From a virus (Duplodnaviria; Heunggongvirae; Uroviricota; Caudoviricetes): DNA of 35,624 nt. Location: IMG/VR virus record IMGVR_UViG_2778261544_000009. The stretch is one strand, 5' to 3'. Shown piece by piece: positions 1 through 35,624 of this stretch (positions are counted from its first letter, which is position 1; every line of letters starts with the position of its first letter). The notes under the pieces were generated by a model. The model ran no database searches. It had not been told where the DNA came from and saw only the letters and a list, made by a program, of their open reading frames with translations. Made by a program: the position numbers and the translations under genes.

Positions 1-594
1 TCAACCTGCCTTCGCTTTTAAACTGTGCGAGAGATTACTAGCTTCAATTTCTGCCAAAATCTCTCTAACTCTATCATCAGATAGATTATCTAGAAGTAGT
101 GCCGCTGCTCGTTTTCGCCCTTCTAATTGGATCAACTCTTGGTTCTCAGGTTCCAGTAAGCGCGACAAGTATTTGGCTCCATTTAGTGCCAGGAGTTTGG
201 ACAACCGCTCAGCCTCCGGTGATTCCAGGGCACTCAGAATAGCCAGGAGGCGTTGTTGTGTGATATCGAGTGGTTGGTTCTGGGCGTTGTTATCTGTTTG
301 AGGATGTAACGACTCTGCGTCTACCTTACCAAAAACAAGCCAATCAATACTTACTCCTTCTGCAAAAGCTATCTGGCTAGCTACTTGTAGAGATGGTATC
401 GCATCTTTCTCAAAATAGTTATTAAGTGTAGAGAATGGAAGCCCCCACGCTTTCGCAACAGCTGTTTTAGACCGACCACGCATTAACTTTGCCAGTCGTT
501 CCTTGATGCTTTCTTTTTGAAATGCTGGAAAAGAAAAATCACTTTCTTTTTTATCGTTTTTTTCTTTTCTCTTAACTGTATGATTCATAAGCAT
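1..594 (-). CDS. Putative immunity repressor (c-like), HTH protein
   Basis: 197-aa ORF divergent from ner at the left end of the early region, with a stop codon at window positions 1-3. Called by position; it lacks the LPGxP winged-helix motif seen at the N-terminus of the transposase, so it may not be a Mu-c-type repressor. Confidence 0.55.
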   Translation of the reverse strand: MLMNHTVKRKEKNDKKESDFSFPAFQKESIKERLAKLMRGRSKTAVAKAWGLPFSTLNNYFEKDAIPSLQVASQIAFAEGVSIDWLVFGKVDAESLHPQTDNNAQNQPLDITQQRLLAILSALESPEAERLSKLLALNGAKYLSRLLEPENQELIQLEGRKRAAALLLDNLSDDRVREILAEIEASNLSHSLKAKAG

Positions 595-3055: not shown

Positions 3056-3129
3056 ATAAAAAAACAGTCCGCGGGAACGGACTGTTAAACAGGGAAGCAA
3101 AGTTAATTTTAAATAACCGAGGAAATAAT

Positions 3130-4062
3130 ATGACCGATATTAATGATGTTTTCAATACGATTAATGCGCTGATTTCCGACGGCGTAAAAACTCAGGGTGT
3201 TATTGCTAAAGAAGCGGGCGTGTCAGAGGCCACGCTATCGGAACTTCGCAAAGGTCGTTACAAAGGCGATACCGAAGGGATGCATGACAAATTACAGATG
3301 TGGCATCAGGACTGGCTGAAAAGCCAGGAATTGCCAGGCGCGCCGCAACTTGTGGAAACACAAACCCTCCGTGATTTGCGCGAGCTGTTTCAGACCGTGC
3401 GTGTTATGGGATGTATCAGCGTTCTGGTTGGTGTGCCGGGTGTTGGTAAAACCGTTGCGGCCCGCGAATACAGTAACCGTGTATCTAATACCTGGATGGT
3501 GACCCTTTCCCCTGCACACTCAACAGTGACCGAGTGTCTGCTGGAACTGGCAGACGCACTGGGAATTGATAACCCGCAAAGGAGTAAAGGCGCGCTGACC
3601 CGTGCCATTCGCAAAAAACTGAACGGCACACGCGGTCTGGTGATTGTGGATGAAGCTGACCATCTGAGCATGGACGGGCTGGAGCAGTTGCGCGCCATTC
3701 AGGATGCAACAGGCGTCGGGATGGTATTGATTGGTAACCCAAGCCAGTTAGCCAAAGCCACACACCGGGGAACGGATGACCTTGCGCGTTTGTTCAGCCG
3801 TTTCGCCAGAACAAAACAACTGCGTAAAGCCAAAAAGGCTGATGTGGTGGCAATTGCGAAAGCCTGGGGCATTGAGGGTGAAGATGAATTATCACTCATG
3901 CAGAGCATAGCGGAAAAACCAGGTGCATTACGTGTATTAACTCATACGTTGAATCAGGCATGGCTGGCAGCCAGCGGGAAAGGTGTTCCGTTATCCAAAG
4001 GCTACATTAAAGCGGCTTTTAAAGAGGTTTACAGCAACCCGAAGTTACTGAACTGGTGGTAA
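3130..4062 (+). CDS. B: Transposition ATPase B (MuB-like AAA+)
   Basis: 310 aa with Walker A GVPGVGKT and Walker B VIVDEADHL; sits directly after the transposase. Confidence 0.9.
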   Translation: MTDINDVFNTINALISDGVKTQGVIAKEAGVSEATLSELRKGRYKGDTEGMHDKLQMWHQDWLKSQELPGAPQLVETQTLRDLRELFQTVRVMGCISVLVGVPGVGKTVAAREYSNRVSNTWMVTLSPAHSTVTECLLELADALGIDNPQRSKGALTRAIRKKLNGTRGLVIVDEADHLSMDGLEQLRAIQDATGVGMVLIGNPSQLAKATHRGTDDLARLFSRFARTKQLRKAKKADVVAIAKAWGIEGEDELSLMQSIAEKPGALRVLTHTLNQAWLAASGKGVPLSKGYIKAAFKEVYSNPKLLNWW

Positions 4063-17479: not shown

Positions 17480-17791
17480 ATGAGTGAAAAAACAGGAACC
17501 AAAGGCGCGAAAGCCGCAAAGAACAGCGCAGCACAGGAAAACCCGGCACCGCTGGCAGACGTTATTGTGGCTGACGGTCAGGCGAATGAACCACGTCCGG
17601 CTGAAGACCCGGTTACTGTACAGGGTGACGCCCCTGTCCGGCTGAACGTCCGGGCCGTGTCTGAAAACGGGTTCTGGCGCTGTGGCCGTTTCTGGTCACA
17701 TGCCGGTGAGGATGTGGCGGTGACCGCTGCGGTTGCCACCCGCCTGATGGCAGAGCCGAATCTGATTGTCCGGGAAGCGGAGAAAGGCTGA
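17480..17791 (+). CDS. Hypothetical head-associated protein
   Basis: 103-aa ORF in the head-gene position. Confidence 0.5.
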   Translation: MSEKTGTKGAKAAKNSAAQENPAPLADVIVADGQANEPRPAEDPVTVQGDAPVRLNVRAVSENGFWRCGRFWSHAGEDVAVTAAVATRLMAEPNLIVREAEKG

Positions 17792-18228
17792 TGGGGTATA
17801 TCACGCAGGAAGACCTGTTACGCGCGGACGGCAATCTTGTCTGGAACATGGCGATTAACCGGGAAACCAACGAACTGGATGAAGACAAAATCCGTCAGGC
17901 CATCAGTGATGCCGAAGCGGAAATTGATTCGTTTCTGTCCCGCCGCTACCAGCTGCCGCTGGGGGTGACGGAAATCCCGCGCCCGCTGCAACGCGTGGCG
18001 GTATCGCTGGCGTTTTACTGGCTATCAGAGCGTGACAATCAAATCACGGAGCTGATCCAGAAACGCTACGACGACGCCATTAAAACCCTGCGTGAGATGG
18101 CGAACGGCACCCGCGACCTGGGCCTGCCGACGTATGCCACCCCGGCAGAAACCGACCACGGGAAAATCATTGTGGTGGGTGCCAACGCCCGGCTGTTCAC
18201 CCGTAACAACCTGAAAGGGGTGCTGTGA
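17791..18228 (+). CDS. Putative head-tail joining/connector protein
   Basis: 145-aa ORF with start/stop overlap to its neighbours. Confidence 0.5.
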   Translation: MGYITQEDLLRADGNLVWNMAINRETNELDEDKIRQAISDAEAEIDSFLSRRYQLPLGVTEIPRPLQRVAVSLAFYWLSERDNQITELIQKRYDDAIKTLREMANGTRDLGLPTYATPAETDHGKIIVVGANARLFTRNNLKGVL

Positions 18229-18770
18229 TGGGGATTTCTGTACAGGTCAGCGGTGACCAGCGGCTGGAGGATATCCGCCGCGCCGTTGAAAAGCTGGCAG
18301 ATGGTTCATTGCAGGCAGAGCTGCTGGAAAGTATCGGTGCGGTGGTGGAATCACAGACCCGTCGCCGCATCATCGATGAGAAAACCAGTCCGGGTGGCGA
18401 ACGCTGGCCGGACTGGTCTGACGGATACAAAAAGACCCGCCACGGCAACCAGAGTCTGCTGCGCGGTGAAGGCCATCTGCTGGAGAGTATCCAGTACATC
18501 GTGGAAAACCGCGTGGTGCGTATCGGTTCACCGCTGGATTATGCCCGCATCATGAATGACGGCTTTTCCGGCAGTGTGCCGGTCAGCGCCCACAAACGGC
18601 TTATCTCGCAGTGTTTCGGGCAGGCGCTGAAATATCCGGTCTGGCAGACCGTCGGCGCACATAACCGCATGATGAACATTCCGCAACGAGAATTTCTGGG
18701 GCTGTCTTCTGCCAACCAGCAGGAGCTGCAACAGGTTATCAGTCATTTCTGGAAGGAGGTTCTGCCATGA
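18225..18770 (+). CDS. Putative virion morphogenesis/tail completion protein
   Basis: 181 aa; motif ...LLRGEGHLLESIQYIVENRVVRIGSPLDYARIMNDGF... resembles the phage virion-morphogenesis family. Confidence 0.55.
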   Translation: MMGISVQVSGDQRLEDIRRAVEKLADGSLQAELLESIGAVVESQTRRRIIDEKTSPGGERWPDWSDGYKKTRHGNQSLLRGEGHLLESIQYIVENRVVRIGSPLDYARIMNDGFSGSVPVSAHKRLISQCFGQALKYPVWQTVGAHNRMMNIPQREFLGLSSANQQELQQVISHFWKEVLP

Positions 18771-19378
18771 CAGAACAACGCCCTGAACTGCGCACACCGG
18801 GGAGCACCGTTGCGGCCGCAGAGCGCATTGTGGCCTGGCTGAAAACAGCACTTCAGGGGAAAACCCCTGACCGGGCCGACGTGGTGGAGCGTCACATCGG
18901 CCAGTTCAACAGCCCGGAAGAAGTGAAGCGCTATCTGTCCGGTCGTACCGGCTGTATCCGAATAGCTGCCCTGCGTGTCCGGGATATCAACCCGCGCGGC
19001 GGACTGTCCGGTCTGGTCACCTGGGTGGCTTACATCATGGCGACGGATTCGTGGGGGTATTCCCGCGACGTGCGCTGCGAAGTGCTGGCCGGGAAGGTGA
19101 TCAAACGCCTGTTGTCGTCGGATGCCACAGCGGGCATGGGGGCTGAACGCATGGCTGCTGATGTGCGGGCAGACAACATTTACTCCGCCAGCCTCGACGG
19201 GCTGGGCGTCACCATGTGGGCGGTGACGTGGGAGCAGGAATTTCAGCTGGATGAAGAGATTGATCTCGCCGCGCTCCCGGACTTCCTGCGCCTCGGGGCA
19301 ACGCTGCGTAGCGGTGAACACACTGAAATTAACGACGTGATCCATGTACGGGGTGACGATGGAACAGAAACTGATTAA
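18767..19378 (+). CDS. Hypothetical structural protein
   Basis: 203-aa ORF between the head and tail sheath genes. Confidence 0.5.
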   Translation: MTEQRPELRTPGSTVAAAERIVAWLKTALQGKTPDRADVVERHIGQFNSPEEVKRYLSGRTGCIRIAALRVRDINPRGGLSGLVTWVAYIMATDSWGYSRDVRCEVLAGKVIKRLLSSDATAGMGAERMAADVRADNIYSASLDGLGVTMWAVTWEQEFQLDEEIDLAALPDFLRLGATLRSGEHTEINDVIHVRGDDGTETD

Positions 19379-19544
19379 GCCAGCGCGGGAAAGCGTTCGT
19401 GTCCGTAAACCGGATGGCGCGCATTTATCCCCGGAAGGGGAACGTCTCGACGTCTGCGCTTACTGGCTGCGCCGTGAAGCCGAGGGAGATGTGGAAATAA
19501 CCACACTTCCGAAAAATAACAACAAAACCAGAGGGAAAAAATAA
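19359..19544 (+). CDS. Small hypothetical protein
   Basis: Short ORF ending at the tail sheath start; start uncertain (19344 or 19359). Confidence 0.35.
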   Translation: MEQKLIKPARESVRVRKPDGAHLSPEGERLDVCAYWLRREAEGDVEITTLPKNNNKTRGKK

Positions 19545-21019
19545 TGTCGCTGGGTTCAATTCCTGATGATATCCGCGTCCCGCTTGTCTGGATCGATATC
19601 GACAATTCACAGGCGCTGGATGGTGCATCCGCGCAAAGCCGAAAAATTCTGGTCATGGGCCATGCGGTATCGTCCGGCAGCGCAGACGCCCTGTCACTGA
19701 CCCGCATCACCAGTGACAGCCAGGCAGACCAGCTTTATGGCAAAGGGTCGATGCTGGCTGAAATGCTCAAAATGCTGCGCCGTGCCAACACGTACACGGA
19801 AACCTGGGCAATGCCGGTTGCCGCGCCAGAAGGCGCTGCCGCAAAAGCCACGCTGACCGTGCTGGGTACAGCGACTGAAGCCGGAACGGTGGCGCTGCTG
19901 ATTAACGGTGTTTCCGTTCAGGTGAGCGTGAGCGCCGGGGACACGAAGGAAAACATTGCAAAAGCCATTGCTGATGCGGTGACGAAAAAGCCTGCCACGC
20001 AGGTGGCCGCTGCGGTGAAGGATGATGCCACGGATACCGTGGAGCTGACCGTGAACTGGCACGGCGTCACCGGCAACGGTGCCGACGTTCGCCTGAACTA
20101 CTACACCGGAGAAGCCTTCCCGGCAGGTGTAAAGGTGACAGCCACCGCGTTTACCGGCGGCACCGGGACACCGGAAATGGCGGATGCCGTTGCGGCCATC
20201 GGCCCGGAGTGGTTTACCGATATCATCGCCCCGTTCACCGACACGCAAAGCCTGAACACCCTGCGTGATGAACTGCTGAACCGCTGGGGGCCGCTCAAAA
20301 TGATGGAGGCGCAGCTGTGGACGGCGTTTCGTGGCACGCACGGCGAGACAGGCACGTTTGGTGAAACCCGCAATGACTGGCTGATTAGCTGTATTGGCAC
20401 CAACCTGTCACCGCACCCGGCGTGGATGTGGGCCGCGTCATACGGCGCAACGGCAGCGTATCACCTTGCCATTGACCCGGCGCGTCCGCTTCAGACGCTG
20501 GTCCTGACCGGCATTCTGCCGCCTGCGCGTAATGTTCGCTGGGATATGCCGGAACGTAACCTGCTGCTGCATGACGGCATTGCCACGCACATGGTGGACG
20601 CCGGGGATAACGTCTGCATAGAGCGTGAAATCACCATGTACCGGGTTAACCAGTACGGTGATGCGGATGTGTCGTACCTTGATGTGCAGTCACCCGCCAC
20701 GCTGGGCCGTATCCGTTACATCATCAAAAACCGTTTCACGAACCGTTATCCGCGCCACAAGCTGGCGGATGATGACGTGCTGGACTCACTGGATGCCGGT
20801 CAGCCGGTGATGACGCCGAAGCTGTGCACCGCAGAGCTGCTGGATATCTGCCAGACCGAACTTATCCCGGCAGGCCTTGTGGAGAACTTCAGCGATTACA
20901 AGGACACGCTTCAGGTGACACGCGACAGCAGCGATAAAAACCGCCTGAACTTTATCTGCCACCCGAATCTGGTGAACCAGCTGCGTGTGCTGGCAGGCCT
21001 GATTCAGTTCAAACTTTAA
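19544..21019 (+). CDS. Tail sheath protein (Mu L-like)
   Basis: 491 aa immediately upstream of the tube gene; GAGGGA RBS. Confidence 0.8.
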   Translation: MSLGSIPDDIRVPLVWIDIDNSQALDGASAQSRKILVMGHAVSSGSADALSLTRITSDSQADQLYGKGSMLAEMLKMLRRANTYTETWAMPVAAPEGAAAKATLTVLGTATEAGTVALLINGVSVQVSVSAGDTKENIAKAIADAVTKKPATQVAAAVKDDATDTVELTVNWHGVTGNGADVRLNYYTGEAFPAGVKVTATAFTGGTGTPEMADAVAAIGPEWFTDIIAPFTDTQSLNTLRDELLNRWGPLKMMEAQLWTAFRGTHGETGTFGETRNDWLISCIGTNLSPHPAWMWAASYGATAAYHLAIDPARPLQTLVLTGILPPARNVRWDMPERNLLLHDGIATHMVDAGDNVCIEREITMYRVNQYGDADVSYLDVQSPATLGRIRYIIKNRFTNRYPRHKLADDDVLDSLDAGQPVMTPKLCTAELLDICQTELIPAGLVENFSDYKDTLQVTRDSSDKNRLNFICHPNLVNQLRVLAGLIQFKL

Positions 21020-21868: not shown

Positions 21869-23716
21869 ATGGCAACAGGTAACCGTCTCAGCACGGAAAT
21901 CATGATCAACCTTGCCGGGAACCTGACCGCCAAAGCCCGGCAGTACGGCGCAAATATGTCGCAGTTCGCCCGGAACCATCAGAAGGCCATGCGCCTTGTC
22001 AAAGCCACAACGGAGGCCGCAGGACGCGGCCTTGATACGCTGGGTAACCGCTATACGGCAATGATAGCCGGGCTTGGCAGTAGCCTTACCATCAAACAGG
22101 TTGCCGATTTTGATGCGCAGATGCGCCGGATGGGTACGGATGCCCAGTTAACCACTGAACAGGTAAAGACGCTTCACGACAAAATCAGGGATGTATCGAA
22201 CCAGAAAGATATTCGTATTGATGCTTCTGCGCTTGGTCAGGGGGCCAGCGAACTTCTGGGGAAAACCGGTGATTATCAGTATGTGGTGGACAACCTCCGC
22301 AACATGGGGTTGATGATGCAGGCGTTCGGTGTTGACGGACAGGTTGCAGCCGGGCTGATGGCCCAGTTCTGGGAAAAAAACGTCCGGGGCGCTGATGCGG
22401 TCAGTAACATGATGGACAGGCTGTATTCGCAGTTCGCAGTGGGGTCTGTAAGCGTTGCCGATGTTGCCCGCGCTGCCCCGAAACTGTTTTCCATCATTCA
22501 GGATCAGGGACCGGAAGCCATTGCCCAGATGGGGGCATTTGCTCAGGTGTTCACCAAAAACAAAGGTAGCATTGATGAGACGGTAACCAGTATTCAGGCC
22601 ATGTATGCCTCCCTGTCGGACAAAAAGAACATCGAGTTTCTGAAAAAAAACGGCGTTGATGTTTTTGTCAAAGGCACAAAAGACATCAAAAAGCCCTATG
22701 AACTGATGATGGAAATCCTTAAACGGGCCAAATACGACCCGCTGAAACTTCAGGATGTGTTTGATCTGACCGGAATGCAGGGGATTAAGGCGCTGCTTAA
22801 CCCTGAAAACCGACAACTGATGGAACAAATGATTTACGGCACGATTGATCTGGGTTCCACGCAAAAGGCCGCACAGACCAATGCCGAAGGCTTTAATGCT
22901 GCAATGCAATCACTGAATAACGAATGGCAACGTTTTGCTGAAGGACAACTGGCAAAGCCCGTTCAGGACCTGGCGGATGCGCTCAACAGCGTGGACCAGA
23001 ACACTGTCCAGAACTGGTTGCAGGTCGGTAAATATATGGCGATTGCGCTGGGTGGCATTATCGCCATCAGAAAGACGTATCAGTTCGGTAAAACCATCCA
23101 CGACATCATGAATCCCAAAGGGAAAGGCAAAGGGATACCCGGTGGCATTACGGATGTTTTCGGCTCCGGTGTGATGCCGGTTTATGTGGTTAATATGGGC
23201 AGTGGCGGGATGAATGGTAATACCGGCGGTCTGCCGGATGCGCCGGATTCATCGCGCAATCCCCGCAATCCTCGGGGTCCGGGTAACCGTGGAGGAAAGG
23301 CAGGTAAAGGCGCTGGCATCATTGCCGGTGCTCTGGAATTTTACGATTTTCTGACCACGCAATACGCCCTGCCGGGTGAGGTTCACAGTCTCACTAAATC
23401 CGTTGCCGGTGATGCCAGCGCCAGCCCGTGGGAGCGCGAGTTCGCACAACAAAGCCAGGACAACCAGAAAGCACTGGAATCCGTCTGGCGTAAGGTAACA
23501 GACTGGTTCAATTCGCTTGGTGATAAGAACATTGCCGACCCGCGACCGTGGGCAGGTATGCAACCCACACAGAATTATCCTTTCCTTCCGCAGCAGTTGC
23601 AGGGGGAAATCCGTGTGGTGGTGGAAGGTGACGCCCGCGTGAAAAGTGTCAGAGTGGATCAACCCGGCGTCAGACTCAGTGCGCAGGCTGGCGTCACCAG
23701 CGTGGAGCAAGGGTAA
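21869..23716 (+). CDS. Tail tape measure protein
   Basis: 615 aa, A/Q-rich and predicted helical, with a Gly-rich C-terminus; downstream of the chaperone pair. Confidence 0.8.
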   Translation: MATGNRLSTEIMINLAGNLTAKARQYGANMSQFARNHQKAMRLVKATTEAAGRGLDTLGNRYTAMIAGLGSSLTIKQVADFDAQMRRMGTDAQLTTEQVKTLHDKIRDVSNQKDIRIDASALGQGASELLGKTGDYQYVVDNLRNMGLMMQAFGVDGQVAAGLMAQFWEKNVRGADAVSNMMDRLYSQFAVGSVSVADVARAAPKLFSIIQDQGPEAIAQMGAFAQVFTKNKGSIDETVTSIQAMYASLSDKKNIEFLKKNGVDVFVKGTKDIKKPYELMMEILKRAKYDPLKLQDVFDLTGMQGIKALLNPENRQLMEQMIYGTIDLGSTQKAAQTNAEGFNAAMQSLNNEWQRFAEGQLAKPVQDLADALNSVDQNTVQNWLQVGKYMAIALGGIIAIRKTYQFGKTIHDIMNPKGKGKGIPGGITDVFGSGVMPVYVVNMGSGGMNGNTGGLPDAPDSSRNPRNPRGPGNRGGKAGKGAGIIAGALEFYDFLTTQYALPGEVHSLTKSVAGDASASPWEREFAQQSQDNQKALESVWRKVTDWFNSLGDKNIADPRPWAGMQPTQNYPFLPQQLQGEIRVVVEGDARVKSVRVDQPGVRLSAQAGVTSVEQG

Positions 23717-26587: not shown

Positions 26588-27036
26588 CGACAGGAATCCG
26601 CTGGAATAACATGCTCTCACGGGGTGACATCACCGTCACCCATAACGGCCTCTCACTGGATGAGGGGCTGGTCACTCAGGTTCTTATCTGCCTTTTCACC
26701 GATGCCCGTGCTGATGACGATGATGTCATTCCTGACGGCTCTGGCGACCCGCGCGGCTGGCCGGGCGACACGTACAGCGATTTTTCGTGGGGTTCCCGCC
26801 TGTGGCTGCTTGAGCGTGAAAAGCTGACGGAAGATGTCCGCCTGCGTGTGGAAGATTACGCGCGGCTGTCCATGCAACCGCTGCTGCGGGCCGGTTACGC
26901 CCGTAACGCCACCGTCACGGCCAGAATCATCGTCCCTGACCGTATTGCCTTTCAGGTGGTGTTAACCCGCCCGGACAAAACCACGCTCACAATTGAAATC
27001 ACCCGCCGATGGGAGGCCACCATTAATGCCGTATGA
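26584..27036 (+). CDS. Baseplate wedge protein (W/gp25-like)
   Basis: 150 aa in the baseplate block. Confidence 0.55.
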   Translation: MTTGIRWNNMLSRGDITVTHNGLSLDEGLVTQVLICLFTDARADDDDVIPDGSGDPRGWPGDTYSDFSWGSRLWLLEREKLTEDVRLRVEDYARLSMQPLLRAGYARNATVTARIIVPDRIAFQVVLTRPDKTTLTIEITRRWEATINAV

Positions 27037-28102
27037 AATCCCCACGCTGGGCAAACTGATTGCCGACGGCGAAAAAGATATTGCGTATGAACTCGGCCTG
27101 CAAAAGCTGCCGCCTGTCAGTGTTGAGCAGGCGCTGAACGTGTCATTCAGCAGTCAGGTCCGGGATTTATACGACCATCAGAGCTGGATTAAGGACCAGA
27201 TAATCCCGTCCACCACGTCTGATGATGAAACCATTATCAAAACAGCAACGTATGAAGGGGTTATCCGCAAGCAGGCCACCTTTGCCAGCGGACCGGTGAC
27301 CTTCACCAGTCAGTCCCCCATTCCGGCAGAAACCCGGATGCAGTCCGACACGAATCAGGTGTATCAGGTGCTCACATCCGGCGAGGTACAGGACGGCGAG
27401 GTCACTGTCATCGTGCAGGCTGAAGAAGCCGGTGTGGCGGGCAATCTTGCTGCCGGTGCCGTGCTCACTCTGTTATCCCCGCTACCCGGAACGGGCAGCA
27501 CCGGCGCGGTGACTGAAAGTGGCATCACCGGTGGCGCAGATATCGAATCCATCGCAGAGCTGCTGGACCGTCTGCTGTATGTGCGCCGCAATCCCCCGGT
27601 GGGCGGTGCACTGCATGATTACGTCATCTGGGCGCGTGAAGTGCCGGGTGTCAGCCGCGCGTGGGCATGGGATGCGTGGCACGGCCCCGGCACGGTCGGG
27701 CTGGCATGGCTTTATGATGACCGTGAAGACATTATCCCCACACGGGACGACCTGAAGACAATGGAGCAGTATCTGTTCTGCCACAAACACCCGGCCACCG
27801 GCGTGATGGTGGGTAAACCGGGCGGCATCGAGGTCTGGCCGGTGCAGGTCAGGCTGAAGAAGCTCGACCTGTCCATCCGTCTGACACCGGACAGCCAGGC
27901 GAACAGGAACGCCGTCCGGGCCAACCTGACCGCATTACAGAAAACGCTGGCCCCCGGTCAGATGCTGCCGGTGTCCTCGCTGCGCACGGCCATCGGTATG
28001 ACGTCCGGCATTACGGATTACTTTCTCAACATCGGGGAAGACACCACCAGTGATGTGGATGAGCTTATCACCATCGGGGAGGTGACATGGCTCACAGCGT
28101 GA
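27026..28102 (+). CDS. Baseplate J-like protein
   Basis: About 358 aa; start taken at the ATG at 27026 (the track ORF begins at a TTG at 26993). Confidence 0.6.
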   Translation: MPYEIPTLGKLIADGEKDIAYELGLQKLPPVSVEQALNVSFSSQVRDLYDHQSWIKDQIIPSTTSDDETIIKTATYEGVIRKQATFASGPVTFTSQSPIPAETRMQSDTNQVYQVLTSGEVQDGEVTVIVQAEEAGVAGNLAAGAVLTLLSPLPGTGSTGAVTESGITGGADIESIAELLDRLLYVRRNPPVGGALHDYVIWAREVPGVSRAWAWDAWHGPGTVGLAWLYDDREDIIPTRDDLKTMEQYLFCHKHPATGVMVGKPGGIEVWPVQVRLKKLDLSIRLTPDSQANRNAVRANLTALQKTLAPGQMLPVSSLRTAIGMTSGITDYFLNIGEDTTSDVDELITIGEVTWLTA

Positions 28103-28671
28103 CGGAATGGCTGACCGCACTGCAACAGGTCATGCCACGGGGTAAGGCATGGCCGCGTGATAACGACACGGATTTAAACCGCTTTTTAAGGGCACTTGCA
28201 GCGCGTTTAACCCGCGTTGAATACGACGCCTCGCGTCTGCATGTGGAGATGCGACCGGAAACCACGCTCCAGCTGCTGCCGGAGTGGGAGCAATATCTGG
28301 CGCTGCCGGAATGCGGAATTGCCGCCACCACAACAGAAGCACGCCGCCGGGCCGTGGTGGAGAAATACCGCCGCAAAGGCGGGCTGGCAACCTGGCAGAT
28401 TGAAGCCGCTGCGGCGGCGCTGGGCTTCACCATCAAGGTGACGGCTGTTCTGCCGCACCACTGCCTGCGCGACTGTATGTATCCGCTGCATCCGGCCCGG
28501 TATCGCTGGCTGCTGAAAGTGGAAGTCCCGGACAAAGATGCCGGACGGTTTACCTGTATTGATGACGTCATGACGCCATTAATCAGCGAACGGACCCGCG
28601 AGCTGGAATGCCTGCTGAAGCATTACCGGCTGGCGGGGACGGGATATGAATATTATTACACCGGAGAATAA
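28087..28671 (+). CDS. Tail/baseplate protein (Mu gp48-like)
   Basis: 194 aa immediately upstream of the first fiber gene. Confidence 0.55.
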   Translation: MAHSVTEWLTALQQVMPRGKAWPRDNDTDLNRFLRALAARLTRVEYDASRLHVEMRPETTLQLLPEWEQYLALPECGIAATTTEARRRAVVEKYRRKGGLATWQIEAAAAALGFTIKVTAVLPHHCLRDCMYPLHPARYRWLLKVEVPDKDAGRFTCIDDVMTPLISERTRELECLLKHYRLAGTGYEYYYTGE

Positions 28672-28674
28672 TTT

Positions 28675-29670
28675 ATGTTTCATGTGGATAATCCGACGGG
28701 TGTACCGGTAATGCCACCTGTCGCGGCTGAATACAGTAAAACAACGCTTTATTTCACTGAAGGCGGGAACGGTATTCCGCCCACTTATCCGGGGCCGGAC
28801 TGGTTTAATATCATGCAGTCCGAAATGCTGGAAATTCTCCGGCAGGCAAATATCAAACCGGACAAAAACACGACCAACCAGATTATGACGGCGCTGAAAA
28901 AGCTGTTTATCACGAACAGTGGTTCAGCCGGAGCTATTGCCGGATTAACCGGTCAGAATAATACATTCCCGTATTTTACCGGCGAAGACACAATGGCATT
29001 AACGCCGCTCAGTGCTTTTGTGCGCAGTATTCTCGGGAAAACCACAGCCAGCGAATTTATTAAAGCAATTGGCCTGTCACCGGACACCCTTTTATCAAAA
29101 GGACGGGTGACAGCATTAAGCGGCACAGCACAGGGACATGCAGGGCTGCAGATGTATGAAGCGTACAACAACGGCTACCCCACCACTTATGGCAATGTTC
29201 TGCACCTGAAAGGCGCGACAGCATCAGGCGAAGGTGAACTGCTGATTGGCTGGAGTGGTACGAGTGGAGCGCATGCCCCTGTTTATATCCGTTCAAGACG
29301 TGATTCTGCAGATGCCAGCTGGTCCGAATGGGCACAGGTGTATACATCAAAAGACAGCTTCAACGCAGCAACCGCCACCAAACTACAAACCGCCCGCAGG
29401 ATTAACAATGTGCTGTTTGATGGCACCAGCGATATCACCATCAGCAGCACCGATTCCGGCGCTGTGCGTGATTTCAGATACACCAGCGAAGTGTTTCACA
29501 ATCCTGGTGGTAACGAAATTTCCTGGGTATTCCGTGCGCCTTCAGGTTGTATTTTGTCAGGTATTAACGTTCAGGATACTGGCAGAAGTTCTGCGGATAA
29601 CATCGGCGGCGTGTATTACAAACAAACTCAGATTTATATCAATGGTGGATGGCGCACGGTATCCGGCTAA
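28675..29670 (+). CDS. Tail fiber protein (first fiber)
   Basis: 331 aa; N-terminus MFHVDNPTGVPVMPP...GIPPTYPGPDWFN resembles conserved tail-fiber N-termini; followed by a fiber assembly gene. Confidence 0.7.
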   Translation: MFHVDNPTGVPVMPPVAAEYSKTTLYFTEGGNGIPPTYPGPDWFNIMQSEMLEILRQANIKPDKNTTNQIMTALKKLFITNSGSAGAIAGLTGQNNTFPYFTGEDTMALTPLSAFVRSILGKTTASEFIKAIGLSPDTLLSKGRVTALSGTAQGHAGLQMYEAYNNGYPTTYGNVLHLKGATASGEGELLIGWSGTSGAHAPVYIRSRRDSADASWSEWAQVYTSKDSFNAATATKLQTARRINNVLFDGTSDITISSTDSGAVRDFRYTSEVFHNPGGNEISWVFRAPSGCILSGINVQDTGRSSADNIGGVYYKQTQIYINGGWRTVSG

Positions 29671-29684
29671 TTAAGGAGAAAATA

Positions 29685-30215
29685 ATGGAACTCAGAAACG
29701 TCACGCGTTATTACCCGGAAGAGATGCCTTATGGTGAAAACATTCAGTATTTCCGCAGTGAAGACGGACAGGATTTTTATGAATCACTGGATAAATTCAC
29801 GAAGAAATACAAATTGTGTATTCACCCTGAAAGCGGCGTGATTTATTCAATGGCGGAAGACGTGTCCCGTCTTTATCCGGCTGGCTTCACCATTGTGGAA
29901 GTGGATGAACTGCCGGAAGGTTTTGGCATTGAAGCCAGCTGGTATTACAAAGACGGCGAAGTGCTGCCGGTTCCTGTTGATTACTCGCGACTGGCAGAAA
30001 AAAAACGCCAGAGCCTGCTGAATGAAGCGAAGGACATCACCTCCGACTGGAAAACCGAGCTGGAGCTGGGCACCATCAGCGACGATGATAAAGCCCGTCT
30101 TACGCAGTGGATGGCATATATCAAAGCGGTAAAGGCACTGGATTTAAGCACCGTTACTGACGAAGCCTCCTTTTACTCCATCAACTGGCCGGAGCGTCCC
30201 GATGCCGCAGCTTAA
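29685..30215 (+). CDS. Tail fiber assembly protein (Tfa/U-like)
   Basis: AAGGAG RBS then ATG at 29685; ends ...INWPERPDAAA, typical of Tfa chaperones. Confidence 0.7.
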   Translation: MELRNVTRYYPEEMPYGENIQYFRSEDGQDFYESLDKFTKKYKLCIHPESGVIYSMAEDVSRLYPAGFTIVEVDELPEGFGIEASWYYKDGEVLPVPVDYSRLAEKKRQSLLNEAKDITSDWKTELELGTISDDDKARLTQWMAYIKAVKALDLSTVTDEASFYSINWPERPDAAA

Positions 30216-33200
30216 AGGTGTGATTAAAACGCCCACGGGAGAACCGCTGGGCGGCGCAACAATTACACTGACCTCCCTGCACAACCGTGCAGGGATTCTG
30301 AAAAGTGTTTTCAGCCATGTCACCACACAGAGCGGGGAGTACGACTTCCCCGTTCTGCCGGGTGTGTACAGCGTTCGCCTGACACAAAGCACACAGCGCC
30401 TTTCAGAAATCGGTGTCATCCGCGTTTATGAGGATTCAGCGGACGGTTCGCTGAATGATTTTCTGGGCGCAACCGATATTGACCTGCGCCCGGAAGCCCT
30501 GAAGAAATTCGAGGAACTGGCGCAACAGGCGCAGCAAAGCGCAGAAAAAGCAGGAGAGCACGCCACCGCTGCTGAACAGGCCCGCCAGGATACAGAAACG
30601 CTCGCCTGGGAAATACAGCAGGATGCAGAAGAAATTGCGGGTAATGTGCAGAAAGCTGAAGAGCTGGCCTCTGAAACAAACCAGAATGCCGCCCGCGCAG
30701 AGCAGGCTGTCAAGGATGCTGACGCGATAGTCCAGAAAGCGGTCGATAAACTTGCTGATGCTGCAACGCTGACCGGCGAGGCAAAAGCCAGCGCCGAAGC
30801 GGCAGCAAAAAGCGAACAGAACTCGAAACAGCACAGGGACGAGGCGCAACGGATAGTTGATGACCTGAAGGGAAGCAATGCCTCCACGACGGAAAAAGGC
30901 CTGGTGCAACTCTGTAGTGATACAGACAACGACAGCGAAGAACTGGCAGCCACACCAAAGGCTGTCAAAACCGTCATGGACGAGACGAAAACAAAAGCTC
31001 CACTGGACAGCCCGGTGTTCACCGGCACGCCAACCACACCAACCCCACCGGATGATGCAGTCGGTCTGGAAACCGCGAACGCGGCATTTGTTCGCAAACT
31101 GCTCGCCGCACTGGTTGACTCGTCACCGGAAGCCCTGGACACACTGAATGAGCTGGCAGCGGCGCTGGGCAATGACCCGGAGTTCGCGACAACAATCATG
31201 AACGCGCTGGCGGGTAAACAACCACTCAGTGACGTGTTAACCGCAATCAGTAATCTGGAAGAACGGGCAGATAATCTTCTGTGCTTTAATCAGGACGGGA
31301 ATGCTTCACTGTCTCCGCTGTCAGAAAAAGCCCGGTCACTGCTGGCACAGGCCACAGTGGAAGCCATGCGCAATGAGCTTGAGCTGAAAAGCGCGGCGGT
31401 AAAGGACATTCAGACAGACCTTTACGACAGCTCGGAAGGCCGTGTTGCGCTGCCTGGTGCATTTGGTTACGGAATGACGGACGCCGGAGCGCGTTCAATT
31501 ATTGCCAGCGATATGGCGACTGTAGCCAGAACTGCGCACAACCTGCACCCGGGACGGTATTACACCTTTTCCACACAAACGGAAGAGACGACCGGAATAA
31601 CAGAAATTATCTGGCTGGATAATGGCTGGGGCGACAAAACAAGCCAGACAGCAACAAAGCTGGTTCTGTTTTTTGGAAAAGACGGACGGATTCTTATGAC
31701 CGTTCGTGGCGATAATATCTCCGCCCCGGTCACCTGGACGAATCTGACGCTACAACTGGGCAATGCAGCACAGAAGGATGCACAGGAGAATATTTACGAC
31801 CGCACCGAAGGCCGTCTGGCGATTCCCGGCATGTTTGGATTCGGGAAAGTATTTTCCAGCGGCGACAGGACCGAATTTAAAACAGAGGCCGATTTTCTCC
31901 GCTGGGTAAAAACAGCAAAACCCGGTCGTTATGTCGTTTATGGCGCAGATAAAGTGATTCCCGGAGTCCTGTTCAGCGGCACCGTTGAAATTATCTGGCC
32001 GGAACCTCAAACCAACTCCAATCCGGTATATGTGGCCAAAATCATTATTTTTTACGGTATTAACGGCCATATTTATTACAATCGCTACTGGACTACCGGA
32101 GATGGTTATCTGGTTGGCTGGGAAAACCTGAAAGTCAACGAGGCTTCACTCCGGGCACTGATTGAAACCCGCGCGCCACTGAACAGCCCGGCACTGACCG
32201 GAACGCCGTCCACGCCAACACCACCAGATGATGCAGCAGGTAATGAAATAGCCAATGCGGAGTTTGTCCGCAAACTGCTTGCCGCGCTGGTTGGCTCATC
32301 ACCGGAAGCCCTGGACACGCTGAACGAACTGGCGGCGGCACTGGGCAATGACCCGAACTTTGCGACAACAGTCACTAATGCACTGGCAGGTAAACAGCCG
32401 CTTAATGACGTGTTAACGGCTGTCAGCCAGATAACACCGGAAGAAAACACACTGCCTTATTTCAGTGAAGAGGGCCGGATTTTACTGGCGCAGCTGTCAG
32501 AAAAAGCCCGCGCATTACTGGCACTGGACACACCTGAGGCCATGCGCACGGAGCTTGAACTGAAAGCGGCTGCGACGATGGAGCCCCAGAGCGATATCCG
32601 CGACCGCACACCAGGCAGACTGGCACTGTCCGGCATGTACGGATTCGGTCAGGCATTTGCCAGCACCGACGCCCTGACATTTACCGGACAGGCTGATTTT
32701 GCTGAATGGCTGAAAGAGGCCACCCCGGGGCGTTATGCGGTCAGTATTGCGGACTCTTCCACGCTGCTGGCTGGCACCACGAAATTTAACGGCATCATTG
32801 ATGTGATGTGGTCGCCCTTTGATAACGATGAATCGGACACAACGCGTAAATTCAAAACGTTGCTGTGTTTTAACCAGTATTACGAAGGCGAACACAGCAT
32901 TCATCGCCTGACTTACCGCTGGAGTGGAAACAACTGGAATGCAACAGTAAGCCCTGTCATTTACGACGGCGATTCGCTGGCGTTCTTACTCTCCCGGACA
33001 GCAGGCTCAGGCTCATATTACAAATATCCGGCAGTTGGTGTGCCGGTTATGGCGGCATATCAGGGGGAAAGTTTTGGTGCTGATGTGTCTCTGGGACTCG
33101 GTGATATTGTGCCGGGTTCCCGTCTTGGCCCTCTGGCTATGAGTGCTTCAGTTAGCGATACAGGGACATACGTATCCACACCGCAAGTGGCAATTGGTGG

Positions 33201-33306
33201 TGCCAGTGCATACAACTTTCCCGGTCGTTATATGGCGCTTTCGGGGTCACGCAGTAATCACGATACAAAACGTGGCTATATTGGTCTTTTTGTGCGTATC
33301 GAGTAA
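30202..33306 (+). CDS. Side tail fiber protein (lambda Stf / P2 H-like), 1034 aa with internal repeats
   Basis: N-terminus GVYSVRLTQ...IRVYEDSADGSLNDFLGA matches the Stf-family N-domain; two copies of the LAATPKAVK...APLxSPxxTGTPTTPTPPDD...LVDSSPEALDTLNELAAALGNDP collar repeat; three GRLAxPGxFGFG...PGRY tip-like modules. Confidence 0.85.
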   Translation: MPQLKGVIKTPTGEPLGGATITLTSLHNRAGILKSVFSHVTTQSGEYDFPVLPGVYSVRLTQSTQRLSEIGVIRVYEDSADGSLNDFLGATDIDLRPEALKKFEELAQQAQQSAEKAGEHATAAEQARQDTETLAWEIQQDAEEIAGNVQKAEELASETNQNAARAEQAVKDADAIVQKAVDKLADAATLTGEAKASAEAAAKSEQNSKQHRDEAQRIVDDLKGSNASTTEKGLVQLCSDTDNDSEELAATPKAVKTVMDETKTKAPLDSPVFTGTPTTPTPPDDAVGLETANAAFVRKLLAALVDSSPEALDTLNELAAALGNDPEFATTIMNALAGKQPLSDVLTAISNLEERADNLLCFNQDGNASLSPLSEKARSLLAQATVEAMRNELELKSAAVKDIQTDLYDSSEGRVALPGAFGYGMTDAGARSIIASDMATVARTAHNLHPGRYYTFSTQTEETTGITEIIWLDNGWGDKTSQTATKLVLFFGKDGRILMTVRGDNISAPVTWTNLTLQLGNAAQKDAQENIYDRTEGRLAIPGMFGFGKVFSSGDRTEFKTEADFLRWVKTAKPGRYVVYGADKVIPGVLFSGTVEIIWPEPQTNSNPVYVAKIIIFYGINGHIYYNRYWTTGDGYLVGWENLKVNEASLRALIETRAPLNSPALTGTPSTPTPPDDAAGNEIANAEFVRKLLAALVGSSPEALDTLNELAAALGNDPNFATTVTNALAGKQPLNDVLTAVSQITPEENTLPYFSEEGRILLAQLSEKARALLALDTPEAMRTELELKAAATMEPQSDIRDRTPGRLALSGMYGFGQAFASTDALTFTGQADFAEWLKEATPGRYAVSIADSSTLLAGTTKFNGIIDVMWSPFDNDESDTTRKFKTLLCFNQYYEGEHSIHRLTYRWSGNNWNATVSPVIYDGDSLAFLLSRTAGSGSYYKYPAVGVPVMAAYQGESFGADVSLGLGDIVPGSRLGPLAMSASVSDTGTYVSTPQVAIGGASAYNFPGRYMALSGSRSNHDTKRGYIGLFVRIE

Positions 33307-33320
33307 CGGGGAAATAAGAC

Positions 33321-33896
33321 ATGAAAATCAGAGCGATAAAAGGCATCAGAAATGCCCATTATCTCGAAAATGGTGCGGTTGACTGCGAGGTGTTATTTGA
33401 AGGTGAAACGGAATTCGTCCCGTATACCGCCATGCAGGATGATACCGCAATGACAGGCCAGCGCATCTGGGAAGAGTTACAGAGCGGCAAATGGGGTGAA
33501 ATCGCCCCGTTTACAGTCACGCCTGAACTTATCGCAGCGGCAAAAGATGCCAAAAAGATGGAAATCGAGGCGTGGCGCACAGAACAGGAGGCGCAGCCGT
33601 TCACGTTCGAATGGAACGGCCGCCCTTGGAATGCTGGCCCCGACTCACTGGCCCGTCTTTATCCGGTAGTAATGGCGGCGAAATCCGATACGGCAAGAAC
33701 CGCCCTTGCGTGGGGTGACGCCAATAATCAACAGGTGAAACTGTCAATGTCGGAACTGGAAGAACTGGCGGTAGCAATGGCGCAGGCGCAGCTCGATCGC
33801 AATGACGGGATTTATCAGCGCCAGCGTGAAATGAAGGAGCAGCTTTCCCGGCTGTCCATACTGGACGAGGTGAGAGCGTTAACTGTCGGTGATTAA
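33321..33896 (+). CDS. Putative tail fiber assembly/chaperone protein (second)
   Basis: 191-aa ORF immediately downstream of the large fiber gene. Confidence 0.55.
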   Translation: MKIRAIKGIRNAHYLENGAVDCEVLFEGETEFVPYTAMQDDTAMTGQRIWEELQSGKWGEIAPFTVTPELIAAAKDAKKMEIEAWRTEQEAQPFTFEWNGRPWNAGPDSLARLYPVVMAAKSDTARTALAWGDANNQQVKLSMSELEELAVAMAQAQLDRNDGIYQRQREMKEQLSRLSILDEVRALTVGD

Positions 33897-34019
33897 ATAA
33901 TCAGTTTGTATAGTTTATGACGATCGATAACATCATATCGATCGTCGGTTTGCATCGGTTGTGATTAAATACCCCCAGCCCTCCGGGCGGTCATGTCTGG
34001 TTATTACACAGGGGGAATC
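33897..34019. promoter_or_regulatory. mom-operon regulatory region with GATC-containing inverted repeat
   Basis: Perfect 11-bp inverted repeat GACGATCGATA-N6-TATCGATCGTC at 33919-33946 carrying two GATC sites; CCCCC...GGGGG elements nearer the com start. Confidence 0.6.
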
Positions 34020-34205
34020 ATGGACTCTGTTCGCTGTAAAAACTGCAATAAATTACTGTTTAAAGGAGGTTTTAAGCATATAGAAATTAAATGCCCTCGC
34101 TGTAAACGTTACATTGTCATATCGAATGCCAAAGAGCATCCCACGGAGCTGTATTGTGGGAAAAGAGAAGAAATCACGCATTCTGACAAAACCCTGCGTT
34201 ATTGA
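34020..34205 (+). CDS. com: Com zinc-finger translational activator of mom
   Basis: 61 aa, CKNCNKLLF...CPRCKR zinc finger ending ...[10 protein letters not shown]; AGGGGGA RBS. An alternative ATG lies at 33993. Confidence 0.85.
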
Positions 34206-34851
34206 GTATGAAGGCCGGATTGTCGGCTATGGTTCAAAGGAGCTGCGCGTTGAAACCATATCCTGCTGGCTGGCCCGCACAATCATTCAGACAAAACACT
34301 ATTCCCGCCGTTTTGTGAATAACTCCTACCTGCATTTGGGCGTATTCAGCGGACGTGATCTGGTTGGTGTTCTTCAGTGGGGATATGCCCTTAACCCCAG
34401 CTCAGGGCGTCGTGTTGTGCTGGAAACGGATAACCGGGGCTATATGGAACTGAACCGCATGTGGCTACACGACGACATGCCCCGCAATTCTGAATCACGG
34501 GCCATCAGCTACGCGCTGAAAACCATCAGGTTACTGTACCCGTCAGTGGAGTGGGTTCAGTCCTTTGCAGACGAACGCTGCGGACGTGCTGGCATGGTAT
34601 ATCAGGCGTCGAATTTTGATTTTATAGGCAGCCACGAAAGCACGTTCTACGAACTGGACGGCGAGTGGTATCACGAGATAACGATGAACGCGATTAAGCG
34701 CGGAGGACAACGAGGCGAGTATTTACGGGCTAATAAGGAGCGGGCCGTGGTACACAAATTTAATCAGTATCGCTACATCAGATTCCTGAACAAGCGCGCA
34801 AAAAAGCGCCTAAACACTAAGCTATTCAGGGTTCAGCCATACCCGAAGTGA
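34126..34851 (+). CDS. mom: Mom DNA-modification protein
   Basis: Overlaps the 3' end of com, as in Mu. Start uncertain: TTG at 34114, ATG at 34126, or GTG at 34156. Confidence 0.8.
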
Positions 34852-34871
34852 TCCCACTTAATGAATAAAAA

Positions 34872-34896
34872 AGCAGCGGTAAATGCCGCTGTTTTA
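34872..34896 (+). terminator. Terminator-like hairpin after mom
   Basis: Stem CAGCGG / loop TAAATG / CCGCTG followed by TTTTAT. Confidence 0.5.
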
Positions 34897-34976
34897 TCTT
34901 GAATAACTTCCATATGCGCGCTTCTGGCTTATCTTGAAAGAATTCCATATCTATCTTGAATAATTTTGCGCGCTTT
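34891..34976. repeat. Right-end (attR) terminal repeats, putative transposase binding sites
   Basis: Three direct copies of ATCTTGAA(T/A)A at 34895, 34930 and 34953; GCGCGCTT at 34915 and 34969. The phage sequence ends ...TTTTGCGCGCTTT(A) against host DNA. Confidence 0.6.
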
Positions 34977-35624
34977 AGTTTCTCTGGCGCGCTCCGTAAA
35001 CCCCGGGAACAGAGGCAGCTTGATTTCCCGACACATCTGAATGGCAAAGTGTTCTGCCATCAGCATAATGTCGCTTTCGCGCTCGCGCAGGGGCGGCAGT
35101 TGCACTACATCGAAAGCCAGCCGGTCGAGCAGGTCAGCGCGAAAATTACCTTCATTGACCATCGCCGGGAGATCGGCATTCGTCGCGCATACCAACCGCA
35201 CATTCACCTGCAATGGCTGGCTGCCGCCAACGCGCTCCAGTTCACCGTACTCAATCACACGCAATAATTTCTCCTGCACCATCATCGGTGCCGTAGCGAG
35301 TTCATCAAGAAATAGCGTACCGCCGTCGGCACGTTCAAATCTCCCTGGATGACGTTTTTGCGCACCGGTAAACGCGCCCGCTTCGTGACCAAACAGTTCG
35401 GAATCCAGCAGATTTTCATTTAACGCCGCGCAGTTAAGGGAAATAAACGGCCCCTGCCAACGGGAGGAGAGATAATGCAGACGGCTGGCAATCAGCTCTT
35501 TACCTGTGCCGCGCTCGCCGATGATGAGCACCGGTTTGTCCAGCGGTGCGAGATGCGAAACCTGTTCCAGCACTTCGAGAAAGCTGTTCGCCTCACCGAG
35601 TAAATTATCTTTGTATTCTGCCAT
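34977..35624 (-). pseudogene. pspF: Host pspF (sigma-54 activator of the phage-shock operon), 3' end truncated by the prophage
   Basis: The N-terminal ~216 aa (MAEYKDNLLGEANSFLEVLEQ...GERGTGKE...GFTERARET) match my recollection of E. coli PspF; after ERARET the frame runs 15 codons into phage DNA to a stop at 34929. Confidence 0.85.

Follow-up and report, generated by a model that had tools for sequence, protein, structure and literature searches.

The 35,624-nucleotide (nt) stretch of DNA analysed here, IMG/VR virus record IMGVR_UViG_2778261544_000009 (hereafter the window), holds a near-whole Mu-like transposable prophage whose host is Escherichia coli, and our subject is the tail fiber cassette near its right end, between the baseplate gene gp48 and com/mom. 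The cassette consists of four genes: a short fiber of 331 amino acids (aa) (fiber 1, 28675-29670), a tail fiber assembly chaperone of 176 aa (Tfa1, 29685-30215), a long fiber of 1,034 aa (fiber 2, 30202-33306) and a DUF4376 protein of 191 aa (33321-33896). A preliminary description of this DNA had reported two co-oriented fiber-chaperone pairs, and all of these open reading frames (ORFs) were recovered at the positions it gave, on the plus strand. The genes are closely packed, with gaps of 3-14 nt and one 14-nt overlap: fiber 1 begins 4 nt past the gp48 stop codon, the fiber 2 ATG sits 14 nt inside the end of Tfa1, and the DUF4376 gene begins 15 nt past the fiber 2 stop codon. Within the four-gene cluster we found neither a sigma-70-like promoter on the plus strand nor a strong terminator. 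This absence, together with the close packing and the common orientation, suggests that all four genes are probably translated from one late transcript.

The cassette has no Gin/G-segment inversion system: the window contains no recombinase, no gix-like site and no long inverted repeat. No serine recombinase was detected in the whole window (best tblastn E values of 1.2 for Mu Gin and 0.86 for gamma-delta resolvase), and a FimB-type recombinase gave no match there either (best tblastn E value of 1.9). The gix consensus and its degenerate core are without a match in the window at ≤3 mismatches, and the region 27500-35000 has no long inverted repeat, the longest being 27 nt at 78% complementarity. 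Oppositely oriented alternative Sv/U cassettes with a common constant 5' part are likewise missing, all four genes being encoded on the plus strand. Nor can gin hide in the flanks, since these are filled: on the right, mom, a terminator hairpin, the prophage end and pspF leave no space for it, and on the left the sequence beyond the window amounts, in a relative, to only ~330 bp of attL. A Gin homologue was absent from the seven relatives of this lineage that we inspected. The search for recombinases and crossover sites that the preliminary description had proposed for window and flanks thus returned nothing. One candidate for a relic gix site was considered within fiber 1, namely SEFIKAIGLSPD, whose position matches that of the gix-encoded ..LFIQNLGLQE.. 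of Mu. It was rejected, as its DNA fits gix at 11 of 27 positions and has no inverted partner, and we treat this region as a shared fiber joint motif rather than as a crossover site.

Fiber 1 matches phrog_1833, a tail fiber profile of 322 positions, from end to end (E 4e-113), and has no Pfam match. It begins like Mu S, residues 1-81 matching the N-terminus of that protein (PDB 5yvq, 5yvq_A, E 2.5e-20), and ends like the short tail fiber of phage phiTE, whose C-terminus matches residues 271-331 (PDB 9cuy, E 9e-14). A tip resembling that of Mu S was considered and rejected, given that phmmer matches Mu S over residues 1-81 only and that the tip matches the phiTE C-terminus. Between these ends, residues 127-248 share 65-69% identity with the variable (Sv or Sv') segments of gene S of P1/P7. 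The join at approximately residue 125 falls in the conserved joint motif, which is the site of the Sc/Sv boundary in Mu and P1 too, and it splits the protein into a proximal part conserved in the lineage (residues 1 to ~125) and an exchangeable distal part (~126-331). Relatives share 76-97% identity in the N part, compared with 33-91% in the C part. The ORF ends in a stop codon of its own, its family match spans the full length, its tip recurs in other complete fibers, and a U-type chaperone is encoded downstream, all of which indicates that it encodes a whole, short S-type baseplate fiber and not the constant part of a split gene, in agreement with how it had been taken in the preliminary description.

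A related short S gene, 37% identical over its full length, is present in a Gin-bearing Mu-like phage inserted in Stx phages (LC727881). Downstream of it there, a Tfa gene and an alternative tip, both inverted, precede a Gin homologue with 76% identity to that of Mu. Fibers of this type therefore occur in both invertible and fixed forms. In that phage, which lies within an Stx2c phage (L006, 7001-9515), the short S gene is on the plus strand and the sole detectable Tfa gene is on the minus strand with the alternative tip, just before gin, so that in the deposited orientation the expressed fiber has no co-oriented chaperone.

Tfa1 is a U-type chaperone, matching Caudo_TAP (PF02413, E 1.6e-21) and Mu U (PDB 5yvq_B, E 9.5e-16). 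The mechanically called ORF starts at 29649, the alignment to phrog_136 begins at residue 12, and an AAGGAG ribosome-binding site lies 7 nt ahead of the ATG at 29685, which is the likely true start. The protein encoded downstream of fiber 2 matches DUF4376 (PF14301, E 5.8e-16) at residues 73-177 and gives no Caudo_TAP match in Pfam. One profile, phrog_11571, matches both proteins, Tfa1 in its N part and the DUF4376 protein in its C part, which suggests that the C-terminal domains of the two may be alternatives within one chaperone design. The DUF4376 protein is 77% identical to L57 of phage phiP27 and to tail4 of Rac-SA53. Tail fiber chaperones of Alteromonas phages V22 and A5 are annotated as DUF4376 proteins, and the function of the H fiber of the Campylobacter element CJIE1 requires a DUF4376 gene (PMC10579305, PMC7289586, PMC7882524). 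In V22 (gp27), A5 (gp9) and CJIE1, as in the window, DUF4376 occupies the C-terminal two-thirds of the protein (aa 73-177 here) and the gene lies directly downstream of the fiber; they differ in that the window protein is known from its sequence alone and that its fiber tip has no characterised relative. By analogy within the family, the assignment of this protein as a second, putative fiber 2 chaperone is well founded. The preliminary description had placed it in a lambda Stf-type module; a chaperone it appears to be, though not one of the lambda Tfa type.

Fiber 2 itself had been called Stf/P2-H-like. The likeness to lambda Stf stands, as its N-terminus matches PF08400 at residues 4-130 (E 3.7e-26), with a Phage_fiber_2 match following at residues 228-267. 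The likeness to P2 H found no specific support: neither fiber matches the P2 H-type N-terminal domain (DUF3751, PF12571) in Pfam at E ≤ 0.01, and PF12571 turned up only in an unrelated IMG/VR locus (L083). The N-terminal, collar-type anchor comprises aa 1-118 (30202-30555). The anchor region resembles the collar spike gp40 of the Vibrio phage XM1 (PDB 7kjk, E 1.9e-11, query residues 3-187, that is, the N-terminal domain plus the helix) as well as the N-domain of lambda Stf (PDB 9e7m, E 5.2e-10, residues 3-90). It leads into a long alpha-helix (aa ~97-223, 30490-30870), a putative trimeric coiled coil that aligns to the coiled-coil part of XM1 gp40. In a single-sequence AlphaFold2 (AF2) model of residues 1-250, residues 97-223 form one predicted helix with a predicted local distance difference test score (pLDDT) of 80-94; AF2 models of fiber 2 and of the DUF4376 protein were used for secondary structure only.

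Beyond the helix, the Phage_fiber_2 repeat (aa 228-267, PF03406, E 2.5e-15) and the first collar copy (aa 262-350) occupy 30883-31251, the globular domains A (aa 400-520) and B (aa 524-650) occupy 31399-32151, the second collar copy (aa 654-742) occupies 32161-32427, and domain C (aa 792-915) together with a C-terminal tip of 119 aa (aa 916-1034) occupies 32575-33306, stop codon included. The tip is presumed, from its position in the sequence, to be the receptor-binding end. The two collars have 72 of 88 aligned residues in common and form a direct DNA repeat of 254 nt (30997-31250 and 32173-32426) with 81% identity, 1,176 nt apart. Domains A, B and C are paralogous, with pairwise local scores of 103-177 versus a shuffled maximum of 49-54; each is ~125 aa long and carries the motif D.YD..EGR.A.PG.FG.G (30985-32946 region). 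The second collar shares ~84-85% nt identity with the end of the constant part Sc of gene S of P1/P7, where the overlapping features of one P1 record include cixR. Domain C plus tip is 78-81% identical in the relatives ETEC1732 and 06-00048, and ~28-32% identical in Rac-SA53, phiP27 and others. Sequence searches of the PDB with domains A/B and with domain C plus tip returned no match. The distal two-thirds of fiber 2 is ~87% identical at the DNA level to tail3 of Rac-SA53, which indicates recent exchange of this part of the fiber.

The right boundary of the cassette is sharp. Homology to Mu (window 33897-34030 versus Mu 35650-35780) restarts exactly at GACGATCGA, which in Mu comprises the last gin codons and the first Dam/GATC site of the mom regulatory region. 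The mom-regulatory intergenic region of the window (33897-34019, plus strand) sits where Mu has gin; two of the three GATC sites of Mu are kept in it (33922 and 33940), and the third reads CATCGG here. Since exchange in fiber 1 sets in after approximately residue 125, and similarity to Mu returns at the mom operator, the stretch between these points behaves as one replaceable host-range cassette. In Mu, D108 and SfMu the same slot, past gp47/gp48 and before com-mom, is occupied by Sc-Sv-U and U'-S'v in the invertible G segment, followed by gin, com and mom. The N-terminus of fiber 1 is homologous to Mu S 1-81, Tfa1 is homologous to U, and com-mom is ~89% identical at the nucleotide level; however, gin, the gix sites, an inverted alternative cassette and the Sc/Sv split are all absent, and the PF08400 fiber and the DUF4376 gene stand where Mu has U'-S'v-gin.

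The preliminary description had interpreted the juxtaposition of Mu-like and lambdoid or P2-like fiber modules as a mosaic join of this prophage. The layout is not peculiar to it but is ordinary for the lineage, and it has published and deposited precedents, phiP27 included. Of 5,426 complete E. coli genomes, 49 contain the baseplate and fiber 1 N region of the lineage, and 43 of these 49 keep the junction from Tfa1 to the anchor. In the seven relatives studied in detail the prophage is inserted in different host genes, as transposable phages would be, and each of the seven encodes gp47 and gp48, then a short fiber with Tfa and a PF08400 fiber that is complete, truncated or split, then com and mom; the full DUF4376 gene is retained in five. 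Head, neck, tail and baseplate proteins are 96-100% identical across the five whole relatives. The ratio of nonsynonymous to synonymous substitution rates (dN/dS) of the anchor is 0.03-0.19, indicating purifying selection comparable to that on gp48 (0.05-0.16). Because the anchor is under such selection and is only ~36-44% identical to lambdoid or Rac/phiP27-type anchors, its acquisition appears to be old.

The distal parts of the fibers have a different history. Across relatives, fiber 2 keeps 80-98% identity in its first 140 aa and the rest is exchanged in full, with divergence setting in after approximately residue 118. The length of the protein varies accordingly, from 1,037 aa in ETEC1732 to 749 aa in 06-00048 and 535 aa in UMNF18. 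The UMNF18 anchor equals that of the window up to approximately residue 118 bar one substitution and then switches to Rac-SA53/phiP27 sequence, which delimits the anchor module at this point. The lower anchor identities (80-82%) were considered as true divergence, and this was rejected in favor of a recombination breakpoint after ~aa 118. Fiber 2 of 06-00048 consists of one collar, domain C and the tip, as recombination between collar 1 and collar 2 would leave it. Judging from these comparisons, host range varies among relatives by module exchange at fixed joints, which lie after approximately residue 118 in fiber 2, after approximately residue 125 in fiber 1, and also at the collars. Hence, of the earlier statement that host range is fixed, only the lack of a programmed switch holds, for relatives swap distal modules often; the dual host range that was also suggested would be plausible.

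Two variants of the locus deserve separate mention. In STEC719 (L011, 3517-6243) the fiber 2 slot holds three ORFs, for an anchor-only protein of 301 aa, a product of 100 aa and an SGNH/GDSL hydrolase of 456 aa. In prophages of the 54214 type (L015/L019; 1588-3644 of L015), which are common in human isolates, gp48 is extended to 324 aa, an extra ORF of 352 aa precedes fiber 1, and fiber 2 is truncated.

Outside the lineage, phiP27 (L52-L57) and Rac-SA53 (rac63 to tail4) have the same six-gene order as the window: a Baseplate_J protein, a wedge protein, a fiber of ~330-460 aa, a Caudo_TAP chaperone, a PF08400 fiber and a DUF4376 protein, the fiber and chaperone genes being L54-L57 in phiP27 and tail1-tail4 in Rac-SA53. 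phiP27 has a sheath and a tube, and rac63 is the Baseplate_J protein of Rac-SA53. The shaft and collars of tail3 are 79-93% identical to those of fiber 2, double-collar build included, the tip of tail1 is 77% identical to that of fiber 1, and tail2 is 68% identical to Tfa1. The two systems differ from the window in anchor subtype (36-44% identity) and in their backbones, which are not Mu-like transposable ones and lack com/mom; moreover, L54 of phiP27 has no detectable similarity to fiber 1. Mu-like phages without a G region have already been published, namely KS10 and BcepMu (PMC2628397). The closest structural relatives of the window prophage also lack gin: Klebsiella phage Kp4866-3 has three other ORFs past gp48, and Vibrio phage martha 12B12 has a single fiber.

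Two structures bear on where fiber 2 might be attached to the virion. In Ur-lambda, twelve Stf N-domains form a collar around the tail tube at the gpV/gpM junction (9e7m; PMC12617516), and in the contractile-tailed Vibrio myophage XM1 six gp40 trimers bind the neck proteins gp4 and gp5 (7kjk; PMC10457771). Fiber 2 shares with lambda Stf the PF08400 N-domain, the helical shaft, the Phage_fiber_2/collar motifs and the ..LPYF.. joint motif, but the lambda anchor rings the tube of a non-contractile tail, whereas the tail encoded in the window is sheathed and the gene context is baseplate rather than J-lom. The anchor subtype differs as well, and the downstream chaperone is a DUF4376 protein here and a Caudo_TAP protein (Tfa) in lambda. 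As the tube of a Mu-type tail is sheathed, the docking site used in lambda would be unavailable. XM1 gp40 has a homologous immunoglobulin-like N-domain followed by a long helix, on a contractile-tailed phage; in contrast to fiber 2, its distal part is a Det7-like tailspike and its gene lies far from the tail/baseplate genes (gp5-gp18). Attachment to the neck has been demonstrated for XM1, and by this precedent we infer that the neck is the most plausible site for fiber 2 of the window prophage.

We surveyed 80 IMG/VR loci with related anchors (among L022-L101). In 47 of these the fiber gene is downstream of a lambda-J gene, in 19 it is downstream of a Baseplate_J gene with a Tfa gene between, and in nine it lies directly past a gpD-like hub gene in a tail cluster of P2 order, with a sheath gene upstream in eight of the nine; the remaining five are unclassified. 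In the nine P2-order loci, several kilobases separate the PF08400 fiber gene from the genes for the primary fiber and Tfa. Anchor subtype goes with tail class: 43 of the 47 lambda-J loci, but none of the sampled baseplate or sheath loci, have the lambda type, the Rac-SA53/phiP27 subtype was found in 24 baseplate or sheath loci, and the window subtype in three placeable loci of the Mu-like lineage and in one locus of unclassified context. An anchor specific to each tail lineage was considered; this holds for the window subtype, but the Rac/phiP27 subtype is common to unrelated tails. The contractile-tail backbones that bear this subtype (76-97% identity within its first ~110 aa) number at least four and share no detectable protein similarity outside the fiber cassette. 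Two lambda-J loci (L026 and L052) seemingly encode two PF08400 fibers in series, the first a lambda-type Stf and the second, after a short ORF (193 aa in L026 and 102 aa in L052), with an N-domain 66-77% identical to the Rac-SA53 type.

The anchor co-varies with neither the C part of fiber 1 nor Tfa. ETEC1732 combines a fiber 1 C part of 33% identity with 97% for the first 140 aa of fiber 2, and in L055 the C part of a Rac-type fiber 1 is 48% identical, versus 97% for the anchor. Such independence makes docking on fiber 1 less likely and favors a site that is structurally generic. We tentatively propose, as a conjecture that is more doubtful than probable, that PF08400 may be a portable, tail-agnostic collar anchor which in contractile tails would ring a generic non-baseplate part, most plausibly the neck/terminator. 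The presence of one anchor subtype on at least four unrelated contractile backbones, and the sorting of subtypes by tail morphotype, point in this direction. If true, Mu-like virions would carry whisker-like long fibers besides their baseplate fibers, and the pair of fiber and DUF4376 protein would be a plug-in host-range module, moving between unrelated tails without adaptation of the baseplate.

Taken as a whole, we consider it probable that the window represents a Gin-less Mu-like lineage in which two fibers are made and displayed together, with host range shifting by recombination. The locus would be the receptor-recognition end of the late operon, and both fibers would be made together from the late transcript rather than alternately. 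Fiber 1, folded by Tfa1, would sit on the gp47/gp48 wedges, as expected from the homology of its first ~80 residues to the virion-proximal end of Mu S. Fiber 2, folded by the DUF4376 chaperone, would be an auxiliary long trimeric fiber composed of an anchor of ~118 aa, a helix of ~125 residues, two collar repeats, three paralogous domains and a tip, and its anchors might ring a non-baseplate part of the tail, for example the neck as in XM1. Host range would evolve by recombination at the module joints, without programmed alternation.

The gene order would also suit a fiber 2 that is a second baseplate-borne fiber, or a branch from fiber 1 or Tfa1, giving two baseplate fiber sets as in T4, phiTE and further myophages with several fibers; this model was implicit in the preliminary description. 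In its favor, the fiber 2 gene stands right behind those for the baseplate, fiber 1 and Tfa whether the context is Mu-like, phiP27-like or Rac-SA53-like, and it is coupled to Tfa1. Some baseplates, that of phiTE among them (PMC11972413), are known to carry two or three kinds of fiber, and a homologous distal fiber 1 segment is common to all phages with the Rac/phiP27-type anchor. We regard such an arrangement as unlikely, given the nine P2-order loci in which the fiber gene stands past the gpD-like gene and kilobases from the primary fiber/Tfa genes, the fact that the only solved anchors bind tube or neck rings rather than wedges or fibers, and the independence of the anchor from the fiber 1 C part and Tfa in ETEC1732 and L055. 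Far less likely still is that the second pair is non-virion cargo from another prophage, unable to dock and drifting to loss. The ORF in the window is intact at 1,034 aa with a start codon coupled to Tfa1, and the purifying selection on the anchor and the retention of the junction described above are not what such drift would leave. Truncated or pseudogene copies of fiber 2 in STEC346, XJ34 and 54214 speak for cargo, as does the recent exchange with Rac-SA53 tail3, but these decayed prophages bear other frameshifts or pseudogenes as well.

A cryptic switch seems to us the most improbable of these explanations. It would require an invertase acting in trans (Pin-type, from e14, Rac or Qin) on degenerate sites, or recombination between the collar repeats as a one-way change from long to short. 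Its attraction lies in the collar copies, which are direct repeats, in the 06-00048 fiber, which has exactly the build of a single collar, domain C and tip expected from collar deletion, and in the fiber 1 motif (..FIKAIGL..), positioned like the Sc/Sv crossover region of Mu and P1. However, the window offers no inverted repeats of useful length, no gix/cix-like sequence at ≤3 mismatches and no oppositely oriented alternative cassette, and the motif DNA agrees with gix at only the 11 of 27 positions noted above. Deletion between direct repeats is moreover irreversible, and as such is ordinary recombination and not a switch.

Several observations weigh against the co-display of two fibers as we favor it. 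That the genes are co-expressed, that virions take up both fibers, and where fiber 2 docks are matters that we infer here from the genes. Fiber 2, and sometimes fiber 1 too, is a pseudogene in several relatives, and fiber 2 may thus be dispensable. Docking at the neck rests on a single structure, that of XM1, and the anchor domain taken alone resembles the tube-binding N-domain of lambda Stf at least as closely as it does XM1 gp40. A comparison of co-variation between the anchor and potential partners is powerless, as the backbone proteins are all 96-100% identical. In the single-sequence AF2 model the anchor was predicted with low confidence (pLDDT below 50), and the DUF4376 model, also of low confidence (mean pLDDT 65), gave no Foldseek match in the PDB at E ≤ 0.001.

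The remainder of the prophage is of Mu type. The window begins at the stop codon of the repressor gene (1-594, minus strand), followed by transposase A, B, a kil-to-gam block and the late genes, with com and mom at the right end. The kil-to-gam block is 81-93% identical to that of Mu at the aa level, structural genes are 27-50% identical to their Mu counterparts, and Mom is 96% identical. The transposition genes A and B (968-4062) share only ~28-30% (local) and 41-44% identity with their counterparts in the E. coli relatives, compared with 96-100% for the remaining genome, and are as distant from those of Mu as from the versions in these relatives; A is 56% identical to that of Kp4866-3. Such divergence amid a near-identical genome indicates that the early transposition module was swapped. 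The tail genes include the sheath (19544-21019), the tube and a Mu-type baseplate. Ahead of the sheath lie gp36 (17791-18228), a Phage_tail_S protein of 181 aa (18225-18770), a protein of 203 aa (18767-19378) and a DUF2635 protein (19344-19544), which, like the sheath, the tube, gp47, gp48 and fiber 1, are candidate docking partners of the fiber 2 anchor. Among deposited phages, the nearest sheath proteins are those of Kp4866-3 (76%) and then martha 12B12 (56%). The tape measure protein (21869-23716), with 49-97% identity among near-identical relatives, is by far the most variable backbone protein.

Immediately upstream of the cassette, on the plus strand, lie a gp47-type baseplate wedge gene (26993-28102; Baseplate_J in Pfam, E 1.2e-58), whose product is 37.6% identical to Mu gp47 and 96-100% identical in E. 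coli relatives, and a gp48/YmfQ-type wedge gene (28087-28671; Phage_Mu_Gp48 in Pfam, E 1.5e-31; 31% identity to Mu gp48), the final conserved baseplate gene ahead of the variable cassette. By comparison with RefSeq homologues of 358 aa, the gp47-type gene probably starts at the ATG at 27026. A gp48 scan of genome contigs matched only two Raoultella loci, both truncated where the contig stops. Downstream, also on the plus strand, are com (34020-34205; Zn_ribbon_Com, E 3.1e-07; phrog_13819, E 7e-43), for which the mechanically called ORF starts at 33993, and mom (34114-34851; Pfam Mom, E 2.6e-75), the similarity of com-mom DNA to Mu extending from 34030 on. A bidirectional terminator hairpin follows 3' of mom (34872-34891). 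The right prophage end (34872-34977, no strand assigned) contains three direct repeats of ~15 nt at 34895, 34930 and 34952, with the sequence TATCTTGAA(T/A)AA(C/T)TT, which are probably transposase-binding sites. The junction with pspF is at ~34977/34978; from 34978 on, the DNA is 100% identical to many E. coli genomes, and the reading frame departs from E. coli PspF past ..FTERARET. With host pspF sequence directly beyond its right end, the prophage evidently interrupts this gene.

For the biology of Mu, these results amount to a correction: the G-segment/Gin arrangement of Mu, D108 and SfMu is not general to enterobacterial Mu-like phages, and in this lineage, as in Kp4866-3 and martha 12B12, the slot from gp48 to the right end is filled by fiber cassettes that are fixed and of different construction. 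The mapped joints (at ~aa 118 of the long fiber, at ~aa 125 of the short fiber, and the collars) are natural cut points for fiber retargeting. The wider question raised by this locus is how an Stf-type anchor that clamps the bare tube of lambda attaches to sheathed tails, one subtype being found on several unrelated contractile tails. An answer on anchor docking would offer a portable route for adding a receptor-binding protein to myophages or tailocins.

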